A stretch of 64,000 nt of DNA from Candidatus Latescibacterota bacterium (GTDB lineage: Bacteria; Latescibacterota; UBA2968; GCA-2709665), in the NCBI GenBank assembly GCA_965116875.1, contig OZ220733.1:2016001-2080000 (forward strand), written 5' to 3'. The position numbers were made by a program, and so were the translations under genes. Below, piece after piece: positions 12,920 to 18,601 of this stretch; position 1 is the stretch's first letter; every line of letters begins with the position of its first letter. The notes under the pieces are model-generated. The model was given only the letters and a program-made list of their open reading frames with translations, was not told the DNA's origin and did not search any database.

Positions 12920-12935
12920 TGGTACGAAGTTTGCG
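12920..12935 (+). promoter_or_regulatory. Sigma54 (-24/-12) promoter
   Basis: TGGTAC-GAAGT-TTGCG has exact GG-N10-GC spacing and lies just downstream of a sigma54 activator gene. Confidence 0.75.
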
Positions 12936-13030
12936 TTGAAAAACTAGCGCAAATATACGATTGCCTTTTGCTATTAGCCGTATACACGTCCGAAAGCAAG
13001 TATATCCAACCCACTCAATCGAGGCCAACA

Positions 13031-13225
13031 TTGAAACGAGATCAAACCGATCATTTGCTGTTCTCAATCAACGCGGAAATTGACAGGACTGGAAGAATCC
13101 AGGGTTGTTTTGCATCGCCGACTCCGATTGAAGATCACGTCTGTGGATGGCCACGTTTTCCCATATTACCCCCGCCGATGACAACAGAAGCAACTCTTGA
13201 AGCTCACACTAGGTTGTCTGTCTGA
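13031..13225 (+). CDS. Putative RiPP precursor peptide (64 aa, ranthipeptide-like)
   Basis: GAGG at 13021-13024 then TTG. Sequence MKRDQTDHLLFSINAEIDRTGRIQGCFASPTPIEDHVCGWPRFPILPPP...; lies between the sigma54 promoter and the rSAM gene. Confidence 0.6.
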   Translation: MKRDQTDHLLFSINAEIDRTGRIQGCFASPTPIEDHVCGWPRFPILPPPMTTEATLEAHTRLSV

Positions 13226-13264
13226 AGAGTGAGCTAGTCCGATTATTTCGATCGACATTGAAGG

Positions 13265-14752
13265 ATGCTAGAATTGATGAAGATCACAAGATCGGAAATA
13301 CATCTATTCAGGACGCGCGCAAACGCGCGTGCGATTGCCTTTCAGGTTAACACCGGGCTATTTTTTGGGTTAAGCGAGCTTAGCGAGTCGGTTTTGAGAA
13401 AGTCTCAGGTGTTTTCGGACGGAACTGTAGCAGTCGAGCTAGGTCGTGAAATTGATCGAAGAGAGGTGCTGAATGCGATCGGTGTACTTTGTAAAGTAGG
13501 GCTAATTAATGTTGGGTGCGACGGACTGCATCAGATATGTATACCGAGCGATACAGGGGTTTGTACAAACCAAGAGTCTGCTGGGAAGGCAGATCAATTT
13601 CATATAACGCTTCACGTCGCGCACACGTGCAATGTCAAGTGTGCATATTGCTTTGCTCACGGCGGGGATTATGGCGGTTCGCCAAGACTAATGCGGCCCG
13701 ATGTCGCACGGCAAGCTGTGCGTTGGGCTTTACAGGAGGCAAAGTCATTCCAGAGATGCCAGATTGACTTCTTTGGTGGTGAGCCACTGCTTAATTTCAA
13801 ACTGATTCGAGAAATTATCCCTTACGCCCGCGAGCATGCCGATTTGGTTGGCATTGCCGTATCATTTGGAATTGCAACAAACGGCACTGTGATGTCGCCG
13901 GAGATACTTGAGTTTCTGATCGATCAGGAAGTACAGATTCAAGTAAGCATCGATGGCACCGTGAAAGATCAAAACCGACTTCGTAAGTTTCACGACGGAA
14001 GCGATACATACGATGTCGTTGCTGAAAACGTGACGAAGTTGATGGATAGATCGCCTGATAGTGTATCTGTCCGTGCAACAATGACGTCCTACAACGTGGA
14101 CCGGGAGTCCATCGTGAACGGTTTGGCTCAATTTGGCGCATCCCGCGTGGAAGTAGCTCCGGTTGTGGCTGCGCCTCACGAGCCTTTTGCGTTTCGAGAG
14201 GAACATCTCCCTGCAATAAAGCAGAAACTCTGCGAGCTAAGCAGGTATGAGACGGAAAAAATCCTTGAAGGATCGAAGGACCGAGGGTTTTTCGACGATT
14301 ACATGGAGAGGTTAATGACACGTGCGAAATCTTGTTATGGCTGTCAAGGTGGACGCACATTTTTCGCGGTGGACGTTGATGGAGACATCTATTTTTGCTC
14401 AAGTCTTGCCGATCGGCCGGAGTTTAAGATGGGCGATGTTTTCTCTGGTCTTGACAAAAATGTCCAGAATGGATTCAAAGATTCGTTCCATATCGATTCC
14501 CGTTCCGACTGCCGGCGGTGCTGGGCAAGAAACCTGTGCGGAGGGGGATGTATATATGATGCCCGAACTGCAACAGGGGACCCAATAAAGCCGAACCCTG
14601 TCTCCTGCGAGCAGATCCGTTACAGCTATGAACTCGCCATGGAAATGTGTATGGAGATTCAGAGCGCAAACGAGACTTTGTTGCACGAGAGATACAATCT
14701 AACGTGGGTTGATGCAGACGGCGAATCGTGGGACGACGATTCTGTCAAATGA
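13265..14752 (+). CDS. Radical SAM/SPASM peptide maturase with N-terminal RRE-like domain (CteB/QhpD-like)
   Basis: CNVKCAYC, FFGGEPLL and SIDG. SPASM cysteines CQGG...DGDIYFC and CRRCWARNLCGGGC...C. N-terminus IHLF...FQVNTG resembles the RRE of thioether-forming rSAMs. Confidence 0.88.
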   Translation: MLELMKITRSEIHLFRTRANARAIAFQVNTGLFFGLSELSESVLRKSQVFSDGTVAVELGREIDRREVLNAIGVLCKVGLINVGCDGLHQICIPSDTGVCTNQESAGKADQFHITLHVAHTCNVKCAYCFAHGGDYGGSPRLMRPDVARQAVRWALQEAKSFQRCQIDFFGGEPLLNFKLIREIIPYAREHADLVGIAVSFGIATNGTVMSPEILEFLIDQEVQIQVSIDGTVKDQNRLRKFHDGSDTYDVVAENVTKLMDRSPDSVSVRATMTSYNVDRESIVNGLAQFGASRVEVAPVVAAPHEPFAFREEHLPAIKQKLCELSRYETEKILEGSKDRGFFDDYMERLMTRAKSCYGCQGGRTFFAVDVDGDIYFCSSLADRPEFKMGDVFSGLDKNVQNGFKDSFHIDSRSDCRRCWARNLCGGGCIYDARTATGDPIKPNPVSCEQIRYSYELAMEMCMEIQSANETLLHERYNLTWVDADGESWDDDSVK

Positions 14753-16387: not shown

Positions 16388-16420
16388 TATCGTTTAGTTG
16401 CCCAATCAACTTCCTCGTCT

Positions 16421-17518
16421 TTGGACATGGCGCGTTTTCTAACAGTGAGGCTAGTTTGTAGAATGAGAATCGGTGGGTTAAGAAATCTTCCGTTGAGTTT
16501 GTCTCTGATCATCGGTTGTGGGAACCAGGGTGCAAAGCCTTTGTGGATAGAAACAAATACCATGGAGTTGAAGCAGCAACTCACTATTGGGACTAGCGAC
16601 ATAAAAAGGAACGAATACGTCTTCGGGAACGTATCGGACATTAAATGCGATACCGATGGGGATATTTACATTGCCGATGCTGGATTGTTTCGCATTCAGA
16701 AATACTCGTCGAATGGGACCTTCGAAAGGTCCTTTGGAATGGGTAATGGCCGAGAGCCAGGGCAGTTTATGCGATTGATGCATATCGATGTAGACAAAAG
16801 CAAGGACGTATATGCAACAGACTACGCATTGCGCAGAATTACTGTTTTCGATTCTATCGGGATAGTGAAGAATACGATACGAGTCCGTATGAAACCGGCA
16901 CAGATCATCGTCGGACAGAAAGGTTCGATATACATAATTGGAAATCCGATGTCGTATACTGGACCGCTCATACATATGCTCAATTTGCACGGCACATTTG
17001 TGAAGAGCTTTTGTAAGCGTGACGGAATACCGGATTTAGCACTCAAATCGGGAAACTTCGGGTGGTTAGCAACCGACAACGATGGCAACATATACTATAC
17101 ACTTACATATCCGATCGAAATTAGGAAATTCACTGAGGATGGGGATTTATTGGCACGATTCACCCGCCCCGTCCCATTTTTGTCGCCGCCAATCGTGGTT
17201 CGGGCCAAAGGTGGAATGAAAAAAGTCTGGATGGGGAGCGGGTCCATGAATCTCTTCGCACTTCCAGATGGAAAGTTGGTACACCTCATCTACCACCGTG
17301 ATAGAAACAAGCCAGAAATGTATCCAAGATTGTATTTCGACATTTTCTCTCGAAGAGGTGAATGGCTTCTCTGTGTTCCATTGTCGCGCTTAGGATTGCG
17401 GAAATACGGTACGTTAGGTACGGACTTACGTGGTGGTCTTTATGTCAATCACAGAACTCCGTACTCCCGGGTAACGAAGTACTCACTTACTTTCCCAGAC
17501 AATGTTCAAGATTACTGA
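16421..17518 (+). CDS. 6-bladed (NHL-type) beta-propeller protein, probable lipoprotein
   Basis: IIGCG lipobox and NHL-like repeats (DTDGDIYIAD...RIQKYSSNG, GREPGQF, DNDGNIY). The start may be 16463. Confidence 0.8.
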   Translation: MDMARFLTVRLVCRMRIGGLRNLPLSLSLIIGCGNQGAKPLWIETNTMELKQQLTIGTSDIKRNEYVFGNVSDIKCDTDGDIYIADAGLFRIQKYSSNGTFERSFGMGNGREPGQFMRLMHIDVDKSKDVYATDYALRRITVFDSIGIVKNTIRVRMKPAQIIVGQKGSIYIIGNPMSYTGPLIHMLNLHGTFVKSFCKRDGIPDLALKSGNFGWLATDNDGNIYYTLTYPIEIRKFTEDGDLLARFTRPVPFLSPPIVVRAKGGMKKVWMGSGSMNLFALPDGKLVHLIYHRDRNKPEMYPRLYFDIFSRRGEWLLCVPLSRLGLRKYGTLGTDLRGGLYVNHRTPYSRVTKYSLTFPDNVQDY

Positions 17519-17536
17519 CTTCATTACATATTTCAT

Positions 17537-18601
17537 TTGTTAAAGATGGCGAAGAAAACGCAACGAGCAATCGCTAGGACCGATAATACCTGCTTGGCAC
17601 ATGGTCGATTGATCTATATTATGATGTCGTGTTTCTGCATCTGCTTATCGGCCGAAGTTCTGGCTGATGAAATCAGAAGAACGCGCATAATGATGGGAAC
17701 GTCGGTTTCAATAACGATTGATCAAAACTCTTACGAAACGACTGCAGCAATTGACATTGCTTTCCGGGAAATCGCAAGAATCGAACAAATCTTGAGTACG
17801 TATGTTTCCGATAGCCATATTTCAAAGTTAAATCGACTAGGTCGCCTTTCATATCCCCCTATCGAACTACACGATGTAATTTCCCGAGGACTCTACTTCG
17901 GTTTGATTTCTGACGGAGCCTTTGATATTACGATCAAGCCGGTTCTGGACCTATATCGAGAATGTATTCGCACAAAACAACGCCCACCAACGGCTATTGA
18001 ACTTGCTGTAACCACTGCCTTGGTCAACTATCGCAATGTTGCAGTGCATGGAGATTGTATCCAAATACAAAGACGAGGCACTCAAATCACTACCGACGGC
18101 ATCGCAAAGGGATACATAATCGACCGAGCAATTGCGGTTCTTGAGCGGAACGGCGTCGAATCTGCGCTTATAAATATTGGAGGAGACGCTCGCGCGATGG
18201 GCAGGAGATCGAATGGGTTGCCATGGATCATTGCACTACAAAATCCACGAGACCAAGAAGTAAATTTAGCAATTATTCCTCTACAAGATAAGGCTGTAGC
18301 GACTTCAGGAGACTATGAGCGGTACTTTGTACCTGAGAAAACGATACACCATATTGTCGATCCTCGCACGGGTCATTCGGCAACATCATTGATAAGTTCA
18401 ACGGTGATTGCGAAGACAGCCATCGACGCTGATGCCTTGGCGACAACTGTATTTGTGATGGGTCCGGAAAAGGGAATGTCTTTGGTGGAGAGTATTAATG
18501 ACGTCGAGGCACTTGTTGTTACCCGGGGATTTAGGGTGCTGAAATCAAGTGGTCTCACGTTGTTGACTGAGTCATTCAAAAATCCAATCACGCAAGATTA
18601 A
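17537..18601 (+). CDS. apbE: FAD:protein FMN transferase
   Basis: MMGT, SDGAFDIT, GIAKGY, NIGGD, AVATSGDYERYF, HHIVDPRTG and ADALAT. Confidence 0.93.
   Translation: MLKMAKKTQRAIARTDNTCLAHGRLIYIMMSCFCICLSAEVLADEIRRTRIMMGTSVSITIDQNSYETTAAIDIAFREIARIEQILSTYVSDSHISKLNRLGRLSYPPIELHDVISRGLYFGLISDGAFDITIKPVLDLYRECIRTKQRPPTAIELAVTTALVNYRNVAVHGDCIQIQRRGTQITTDGIAKGYIIDRAIAVLERNGVESALINIGGDARAMGRRSNGLPWIIALQNPRDQEVNLAIIPLQDKAVATSGDYERYFVPEKTIHHIVDPRTGHSATSLISSTVIAKTAIDADALATTVFVMGPEKGMSLVESINDVEALVVTRGFRVLKSSGLTLLTESFKNPITQD

Follow-up and report, generated by a model that had tools for sequence, protein, structure and literature searches.

Peptide maturases of the radical S-adenosylmethionine (rSAM) class with a cysteine-rich SPASM region, such as SCIFF/CteB, PapB and the nif11 maturases, carry a CX3CX2C motif and are encoded directly downstream of a small cysteine-containing precursor peptide. 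Among the components named for the qhp operon of quinohemoprotein amine dehydrogenase (QHNDH) are the dihaem cytochrome QhpA, the subunit QhpB, the gamma-subunit precursor QhpC, the protease QhpE, the exporter QhpF and the monooxygenase QhpG (PMC7876137). For extracytoplasmic flavinylation, the main text of Méheust et al. interprets clusters of ApbE, DUF3570, a thioredoxin-like protein and DUF4266 (small, secreted and bearing a CXC motif), with or without DsbD, as a hybrid thiol/flavin relay (PMC8238504). For metagenome-assembled genomes of the Latescibacterota, antiSMASH clusters of the 'ranthipeptide' type are counted without detail in the available text (PMC12993501). Here, we analyse a locus in a stretch of 64,000 nucleotides of a Candidatus Latescibacterota genome (G000; contig OZ220733.1, positions 2,016,001 to 2,080,000; hereafter the window), in which a putative precursor peptide, pepA, and an rSAM/SPASM maturase are followed by a flavin mononucleotide (FMN)-binding protein, termed FMNb, an ApbE transferase and further predicted extracytoplasmic proteins (window positions 12920-18601). 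The locus is a new combination of known kinds, i.e., of ranthipeptide/qhp-like maturation and ApbE flavinylation, and no description of the pepA/rSAM cassette or of the FMN_bind-CPxC family was found in the literature.

The reading that we prefer, and to which we give slightly better than an even chance, is that of one sigma54 transcription unit composed of two independently conserved modules, A followed by B. Module A is defined as the activator, the sigma54 promoter, pepA and the rSAM gene, module B as FMNb, a TlpA-like protein, a Cys-rich peptide and a propeller protein, joined here by ApbE. A giant kinase/STAND/GAF activator would bind upstream GTATAC repeats and open the -24/-12 promoter. 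The 64-aa precursor would be held through its conserved leader INGxxDxxGxI, and the only invariant Cys in its C-x-W-P…LPPP core would most likely receive one thioether from the CteB/QhpD-like rSAM-SPASM protein. ApbE would flavinylate the TGAT threonine of the membrane-anchored, RnfG-like CPxC protein FMNb, which with its FMN and dithiol would exchange electrons with the membrane-anchored TlpA-like CxxC protein. Together, both would govern whether the six-Cys peptide secreted via Sec is in the thiol or the disulfide state, most likely in oxidative folding, and the folded peptide would then act with the NHL propeller lipoprotein.

Layout and control of the locus

The locus comprises the following features:

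7785..12656, + strand: giant sigma54 enhancer-binding protein (activator), 1623 aa, with the Pfam domains Pkinase, AAA_16, TPR/MalT-like TPR, GAF, Sigma54_activat and HTH_8
12805..12820, no strand assigned: candidate activator binding site, TGTATACATTGTATAC, two GTATAC palindromes, from motif conservation across loci
12885..12908, + strand: 10-bp G+C hairpin plus T run directly 5' of the -24 element, a terminator-like site
12920..12934, + strand: predicted sigma54 -24/-12 promoter, TGGTACGAAGTTTGC, one-mismatch match, kept in 14/14 loci
13031..13225, + strand: precursor peptide pepA, 64 aa, TTG start, from tblastn conservation and reading frames in 14 loci
13265..14752, + strand: radical SAM/SPASM peptide maturase, 495 aa, Pfam Radical_SAM, Fer4_12 and SPASM; CteB 5wgg at E 1e-57
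14879..15457 (open reading frame open from 14783), + strand: FMNb, RnfG-like FMN-binding protein anchored by a single membrane helix, 192 aa, from homologue alignment and AlphaFold2 (AF2) fold
15463..16080, + strand: membrane-anchored TlpA/ResA-like thioredoxin-fold protein with CSWC, matching AhpC-TSA and Redoxin
16157..16387, + strand: Sec-type secreted Cys-rich peptide, 76 aa, with 8 Cys in the mature part, 6 of them conserved in a five-locus alignment
16463..17518, + strand: six-bladed NHL propeller with a lipoprotein-like signal (…LIIGC), from weak NHL/DUF5128 matches and AF2 fold
17537..18601, + strand: ApbE FAD:protein FMN transferase, PF02424 at E 3.9e-79
18626..19756, + strand: secreted FGE-sulfatase-domain protein with dockerin/EF-hand-like N-terminal repeats, PF03781 at E 1e-40

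Seven co-oriented open reading frames (ORFs) with short spacers occupy positions 12920-18601 of the + strand, the gaps measuring 39, 126, 5, 76, 33-75 and 18 nt in gene order. All seven, together with the CPVC, TGAT and CSWC motifs, are present where the initial annotation had placed them. Its impression of an AT-rich cluster is borne out by a G+C content of 0.46 compared to 0.553 for the rest of the window, the lowest value of any 5.7-kb stretch in the 64 kb. Between 13225 and 18601 no intergenic terminator-like site was detected, and the first hairpin with a T run 3' of the cluster lies at 19803-19827. The seven-gene stretch is presumably transcribed as a single sigma54-dependent unit. Since module B lies behind module A without a detectable terminator, one activator probably induces both modules in this genus.

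Taken alone, TGGTACGAAGTTTGC occurs at chance level, with three matches in the window and 3.56 expected. All 14 homologous loci examined have a GG-N10-GC element 60-122 nt 5' of the start of the precursor gene, at a background of 0.029 per 400 nt, and the genome encodes rpoN (Sigma54_DBD at G000:C1:4648313). The activator has the Sigma54_activat domain (PF00158, E 1e-68), HTH_8 and a GAFTGA motif in its translation, and is encoded directly upstream of the precursor and rSAM genes in 13 of the 15 rSAM loci examined; in the two others, L022 and L025, the rSAM matches are split or partial and an activator is absent. In correction of the initial annotation, the giant activator gene at 7785-12656 is part of the unit. 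The -24/-12 promoter proposed initially is well supported because the element is kept in all 14 loci, palindromes lie upstream and rpoN is present, and the adjacent activator agrees with it. These palindromes, GTATAC repeats 100-240 nt 5' of the -24 element, are found in all six loci of the window's precursor type and in none of the eight loci of the other type described below (background 0.04 per 450 nt), and they are a putative binding site of the activator. Control of a peptide cassette by a sigma54 promoter and a 1600-aa kinase/STAND activator is unusual.

Ahead of the promoter, the G+C hairpin plus T run recurs in 14/14 loci (the window and the same place in L011-L024) from two bacterial families, and its probable role is to shield the promoter against transcripts running on from the activator gene. 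The element may be a terminator-insulator or a part of the promoter architecture. The one Rfam match within 12600-13300, to osmY, was rejected, as it is sub-threshold (18.9 versus 46.9 bits, E 0.088).

The pepA family and its maturase

The reading frame of pepA (13031-13225) is conserved in five loci as judged by tblastn, equivalent small ORFs were found in 14/14 loci, and its start residue coincides with that of a database relative, P0088, which is 75% identical to pepA. A profile search of the family returned 264 clusters at 90% identity, none of which is named beyond 'hypothetical protein', and an exhaustive HMMER search gave 20 representatives at 50% identity, so that the family is compact. 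For the window peptide itself, scans of Pfam and NCBIfam at E <= 0.01 and of Pfam at E <= 10 gave no family, and it has no signal peptide.

Two types of precursors share the leader. Those of the window type have the leader L.x[IV]NGxxDxxGxI and the core C-x-W-P-x-[FW]-x-x-L-P-P-P, which in the window reads C-x-W-P-x-F-P-x-L-P-P-P; C-x-W is kept in all 11 intact precursors of this type that were read. In the commoner type, the leader is followed by one Cys, six hypervariable residues and a conserved tail, VPPLPFP-DDDDWDDFDQ, with its acidic end. The stretch between the Cys and VPPLPFP is exactly six residues long in 116/116 peptides, which contain 80 distinct hexamers. Of the 120 family members listed, 103 have a single Cys and all match one of the two Cys-containing core patterns; one core Cys is found at the equivalent position in all 14 loci. 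Conservation does not extend to the first Cys of the window peptide, in whose place L013, L014 and P0088 have Tyr or Ser-Tyr. Thus, of the two cysteines originally attributed to this peptide as its characteristic, the second is a family feature and the first is not.

The maturase carries the CX3CX2C motif as C122, C126 and C129 (PF04055, E 6e-15) and eight C-terminal cysteines (357, 360, 378, 416, 419, 425, 429 and 448) in a region that aligns with CteB; the Pfam SPASM model alone scores just under its cut-off (19.1 versus 21.5). Its placement relative to CteB, QhpD, PapB and anSME is based on scores of hidden Markov models and of a PDB search. In the PDB, CteB (5wgg, E 1e-57) is far ahead of anSME (E 6e-17), and the NCBIfam models for SCIFF, nif11, PapB and QhpD reach 234-254 bits compared to 101 bits for anSME. 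Both sets of scores agree with the original assignment to the thioether peptide maturases, and an anSME-like function was rejected on the same scores. The QhpD model aligns with residues 17-475 at E 3e-69. The protein stays below every equivalog cut-off, with 254.4/425 for SCIFF, 248.5/518.7 for nif11, 243.4/340 for PapB, 233.8/453 for QhpD and 159/500 for CcpM, and it represents a separate subfamily. Each of the nearest families forms thioethers, and a thioether is the predicted product on pepA. A second rSAM gene, whose product is 25-27% identical to that of the window, directly follows the first in three loci (L014:11211-12602, L031:1897-3378 and L022:10321-11787).

With SCIFF/CteB, PapB and the nif11 maturases the cassette shares the CX3CX2C motif, the Cys-rich SPASM region and the small Cys precursor directly upstream, and these maturases are also its best sequence matches. 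However, it differs from them by the score of the rSAM protein under every curated cut-off and by a precursor that has one conserved Cys instead of several and a Pro-rich core and belongs to no known precursor family. Moreover, unlike these systems it occurs in multiple copies, with a six-residue hypervariable stretch, a sigma54 promoter and the giant kinase-STAND activator. The likeness to the qhp operon lies in the end-to-end alignment with the QhpD model and in a precursor with a leader. It is extended by L011, a paralogous locus of the same genome, where a QhpE-like subtilase, an ABC exporter and a propeller with a secretion signal are also encoded. On the other hand, no QhpA, QhpB or QhpG match was obtained among the eight window proteins scanned, the peptide is half the size of QhpC, has one conserved Cys and was not recognised as a QhpC precursor in the family scans, and the rSAM protein reaches 233.8 where the QhpD cut-off is 453. 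Nor does the fold search support the six-bladed NHL propeller as a relative of QhpB. The window cluster, in agreement with its first description, encodes neither a protease nor an exporter, and candidate counterparts of QhpE and QhpF are found only in L011.

Module A thus adds a family without a name to the peptides that are made on ribosomes and modified after translation (RiPPs), with the unusual layout of a single Cys next to a hypervariable cassette of fixed length (six residues), and it offers a clean system for studying the role of single-thioether peptides and the way in which they are sensed. Of the parts of the locus, those most worth following are the FMN_bind-CPxC protein and the pepA family under its sigma54/kinase-STAND control.

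Flavin and thiol proteins of module B

FMNb has one N-terminal helix, a CPVC motif (C105, C108) and the sequence TGAT at residues 170-173. Eight database relatives were found, all with YQVREDIxCPxCxDVR and, where the C-terminus is kept, with G[IV]TGATKT. CPxC is invariant across the homologues, and all homologues that retain the C-terminus keep [S/T]GA[S/T], in the form SGAT in L037. The AF2 model (pLDDT 80) has its best PDB matches in RnfG chains (7zc6_G at E 2.7e-6, 9eri_G and 8rb9_G). Pfam FMN_bind matches the window protein below its cut-off (E 0.1, 13.7 versus 22 bits), but the homologue P0004 carries PF04205 and the Atlas clusters nearest to FMNb carry FMN_bind; the domain assignment is based on homologues and the modelled fold. 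The CPVC and TGAT motifs that had been proposed for this protein are confirmed, and it is a putative flavinylation substrate. A search of metagenome contigs with the alignment pattern of FMNb gave 129 pattern matches, of which none was confirmed.

The similarity to RnfG/NqrC comprises one N-terminal helix, a putative FMN_bind domain with a flavinylated-Thr motif and the RnfG chains as best fold matches. In contrast to RnfG/NqrC, no other Rnf/Nqr subunit is encoded near FMNb, and the CPxC loop and REDIxCPxCxDVR are specific to the FMNb family, i.e., to the eight database proteins and to 4 of the 168 Latescibacterota genomes that were searched. As an ApbE substrate, FMNb would be of a new kind, in which a single small, anchored domain bears both a flavin and a dithiol and has a thioredoxin-fold partner.

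The ApbE of the cluster is confirmed by PF02424 (266 bits) and adjoins the RnfG-like protein with [S/T]GA[S/T] and CPxC. The genome encodes two ApbE proteins, each beside a weak FMN_bind protein, and since each adjoins its own FMN_bind protein, that of the cluster looks dedicated to FMNb and would transfer FMN to the TGAT threonine. The ApbE orthologue of the related locus L031 (12871-15683; G001:C15) appears split into an N-terminal fragment at ~13030-13134 and the rest at 14802-15683. Between both pieces, on the opposite strand, lies a 548-aa ORF without a Pfam match (13209-14855).

The TlpA-like protein has an N-terminal hydrophobic helix, CSWC and an invariant T-P. The first Cys of CSWC is invariant and the second is kept in five of six aligned homologues, and matches to AhpC-TSA and Redoxin bear out the CSWC redoxin of the initial annotation. 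As the ResA model scores 49 against a cut-off of 170 (E 5.6e-13), the protein is a member of the fold class and not a ResA equivalog. The secreted 8-Cys peptide is likewise recovered. In an alignment of five loci C29, C38, C50, C55, C64 and C67 are invariant, hence six of its eight cysteines are conserved; it has no conserved Trp, and the Pfam and NCBIfam scans returned no family match.

For the propeller, the AF2 model (pLDDT 85.6) matches TRIM2/3 NHL structures best, with 7qrw (TRIM3) at E 7e-16 and a TM score of 0.76 on the target, and a PAL structure is matched at E 1e-10. The NHL and DUF5128 matches of the window protein are weak, but homologues pass the cut-offs of PF01436 and PF17170, which together with the six-bladed NHL fold and the lipoprotein-like signal upholds its first description as an NHL propeller. 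Kinship with QhpB or MauB is unsupported, no QHNDH or methylamine dehydrogenase (MADH) chain being among the 50 fold matches listed. A complex prediction for the propeller (residues 25-351) and the mature Cys-rich peptide (27-76) gave a score of 0.02 and speaks neither for nor against binding. The partnership of the peptide with the propeller is putative, as is the direction of electron flow.

No match to DsbB (PF02600) or VKOR (PF07884) was obtained in the genome, a single contig that is 97.7% complete, and its single DsbD_TM match lies ~47 kb before the window start (C1:1968881-1969501). A flavin beside a CxxC motif is the layout of sulfhydryl oxidases. In view of this layout and of the negative searches for DsbB and VKOR, oxidative folding that runs from FMNb via the TlpA-like protein to the peptide is favored; the reverse, reductive direction of the relay between FMNb and the TlpA-like protein is conceivable. 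If module B makes disulfides, it would represent a bacterial flavin-dependent route to periplasmic disulfides in an organism in which no DsbB/VKOR match was found.

Among described systems, MADH maturation and, as the nearest flavinylation cluster, the ApbE/DUF3570 set resemble this group of proteins, the latter in its logic though not in the proteins themselves. MADH, encoded by mau genes, has a Cys-rich light subunit and a propeller heavy subunit, and MauD belongs to the same system. Thematically, the window resembles it in having a propeller, a TlpA-like protein, which gives a weak MauD match (E 4e-5), and a small disulfide-rich protein that is secreted. However, the MauD model requires 188.6 bits and the window protein reaches 23, nothing homologous to MauG, MauE or MauA is present, and the Cys-rich peptide has no conserved Trp. 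The ApbE/DUF3570 clusters, as far as the main text describes them, likewise bring together in one cluster ApbE and a substrate for it, a protein with the thioredoxin fold and a small Cys protein that is secreted (PMC8238504). In contrast to these, the window has in place of DUF3570 a putative substrate that is RnfG-like, of the FMN_bind type and equipped with a CPxC, its small protein has six conserved Cys without matching DUF4266, an NHL propeller accompanies them and the cluster encodes no DsbD. The main text of that report contains no mention of 'CxxC', 'NHL' or 'radical SAM', and its supplementary tables may list such clusters (PMC8238504).

Distribution of the modules and reasons for their adjacency

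At a threshold of E <= 1e-60, rSAM orthologues were found in 27 of the 168 Latescibacterota genomes, with one to three copies each, and in none of the 76 genomes of family f4. Full-length FMNb orthologues are present in 4/168 genomes (G000, G001, G138 and G140), and the generic FMN_bind part alone was matched in 12 further genomes. Both modules are found together only in G000 and G001, which belong to one genus. The order FMNb, TlpA-like protein, Cys-rich peptide, propeller is kept in five loci, the window, L031, L036, L037 and L038, of which the last three have no rSAM, pepA or ApbE match in the surrounding DNA examined and a MacB/FtsX permease behind the propeller. In L037 (8320-9830), module B has a divergent sigma54 activator of its own, which is 347 aa long and without sensor domains, four CGTATAGGCATACGA-like palindromic repeats and the -24/-12 element AGGCACGGTTTTTGCA ahead of FMNb. 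The genes past the rSAM gene vary by locus and include a second rSAM, glycosyltransferases, a short activator with a PHP/UvrD protein and a methyltransferase-like protein. In G001, ~6.5 kb with glycosyltransferase, AraC-like, acetyltransferase and methyltransferase genes separate A from B, while order and orientation of the two are identical to those in G000. The functional coupling of the peptide unit to the flavin/thiol unit, on which the initial annotation had centered, is therefore not upheld by conservation, as the modules are conserved separately. Joint working of the two modules is plausible.

Some link between the rSAM cassette and the periplasm is suggested by L011 (G000:C1:258000-277999), a paralogous A locus with the activator, a 72-aa precursor and an rSAM protein 70% identical to that of the window. 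Downstream it encodes a DUF5128/NHL propeller that is secreted and shares 24% identity with that of the window (E 1e-7), an AhpC-TSA protein with a membrane anchor and CQPC, an ABC exporter of the MsbA/HlyB type, a rhodanese, an acyl carrier protein and a subtilase. The subtilase, a fusion with a TIGR04066 peptide-maturation domain, has QhpE as its best model (143.8 versus a cut-off of 165 bits). L011 hence repeats rSAM, propeller and TlpA-like protein in non-orthologous form, which makes such a link plausible, and the recurrence of the three in two paralogous loci makes peptide-derived periplasmic cofactors beyond qhp and mau testable.

Several observations weigh against the preferred reading in one or another of its parts. 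The two precursor types have in common no Asp, Glu, Asn or Thr with a constant spacing to the Cys that would point to the thioether acceptor. As every NCBIfam rSAM model scores under its cut-off, a different crosslink is possible. The TlpA homologue of L038 has CPAG with a single Cys. The cluster encodes no electron donor or acceptor for FMNb, which is why the direction given to the relay is a guess. Furthermore, the 126-nt gap ahead of FMNb could hold an unrecognised promoter, and the propeller and TlpA-like protein of L011 argue that module A is functionally tied to periplasmic proteins and not merely adjacent to them.

As first proposed, the locus might encode one integrated pathway. Crosslinked pepA would be processed and exported by the protease and exporter of L011 and join the propeller, and FMNb, the TlpA-like protein and ApbE would finish a Cys/Trp-derived cofactor, resulting in a cytochrome-free analogue of QHNDH or MADH. 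The nearly complete coverage of the rSAM protein by the QhpD model, the gene content of L011, with precursor, rSAM, propeller, TlpA-like protein, ABC exporter and QhpE-like subtilase, the C-x-W of all intact window-type precursors and the common A-B order in both genomes having both modules would fit. Nevertheless, we consider this pathway unlikely, as family f4 and L036-L038 have module B but no rSAM orthologue and the module has its own Sec-exported peptide substrate, while pepA has neither signal peptide nor family match and the cluster neither a cytochrome nor a monooxygenase. Moreover, the propeller is a six-bladed NHL protein without a QHNDH or MADH chain among its listed fold matches, and the S8 protease fusion family is far more widespread than the rSAM gene and absent from G001, which has A and B. 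The analogy to QHNDH/MADH drawn at the outset is not one of homology: the propeller matches NHL domains best, pepA belongs to no family and neither a cytochrome nor QhpG is present. L011 lends the analogy indirect support. Its most specific form, in which the exported C-x-W thioether peptide docks on the propeller and FMNb and the TlpA-like protein make a Cys/Trp redox cofactor, giving a cytochrome-free, flavin-serviced counterpart of QHNDH on an unrelated propeller, is improbable.

Alternatively, module A might be a peptide-signal switch, in which the activator recognises its cassette's thioether peptide as a ligand through the TPR/STAND sensor, in positive feedback or as a pherotype, and the downstream genes, here module B, are cargo under the switch. 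TPR receptors of signalling peptides are known as the RRNPP family, and reports have linked ranthipeptides to quorum sensing. The AAA_16 and MalT-like TPR domains of the activator, its constant position next to the cassette (13/15 loci) while the downstream genes vary, the one to three paralogous cassettes per genome and the 80 distinct hexamers between conserved flanks in 116 peptides are consistent with this. However, most cassettes adjoin neither an exporter nor an importer, and the hypervariability fits an antimicrobial or adhesive product, too, which leaves the switch distinctly unlikely in our estimation. Mere adjacency, in which the modules have neither function nor regulation in common and module B, under an unrecognised promoter of its own in the 126-nt gap, was placed by insertion beside a copy of module A in an AT-rich variable region, would account for the independent distribution, for the ~6.5 kb of other genes between the modules in G001 and for the separate regulators of module B in L037. 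Against this speak the rSAM-FMNb gap (14753-14878), in which neither a sigma70-like nor a -24/-12 match nor a terminator-like site was detected after the rSAM gene, the same order and orientation in both genomes and the repetition of the rSAM, propeller and TlpA theme in L011. We give mere adjacency a low probability. One sigma54 unit of two separately conserved modules remains the reading that we prefer.

The gene of the FGE-sulfatase-domain protein starts 24 nt past ApbE with an intermediate G+C content of 0.525. No terminator-like site lies between the two genes, and it is possibly co-transcribed with the cluster. It is missing behind ApbE in G001 and is not conserved with the cluster.

The S8/TIGR04066 fusion was also considered as a marker of 'complete' rSAM loci and rejected: the family is present in 85/168 genomes, including family f4, and missing from G001, and because of this wide occurrence it is not rSAM-specific. 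Within this family, a single in-frame TGA is found in six genomes for one subgroup (~40% identity), and a single in-frame TAG in four genomes for a second (~48% identity). The genomes with an in-frame TGA or TAG include G025, G027, G028, G035, G039 and G091, and these codons could be selenocysteine positions, other recoding or signs of split genes.

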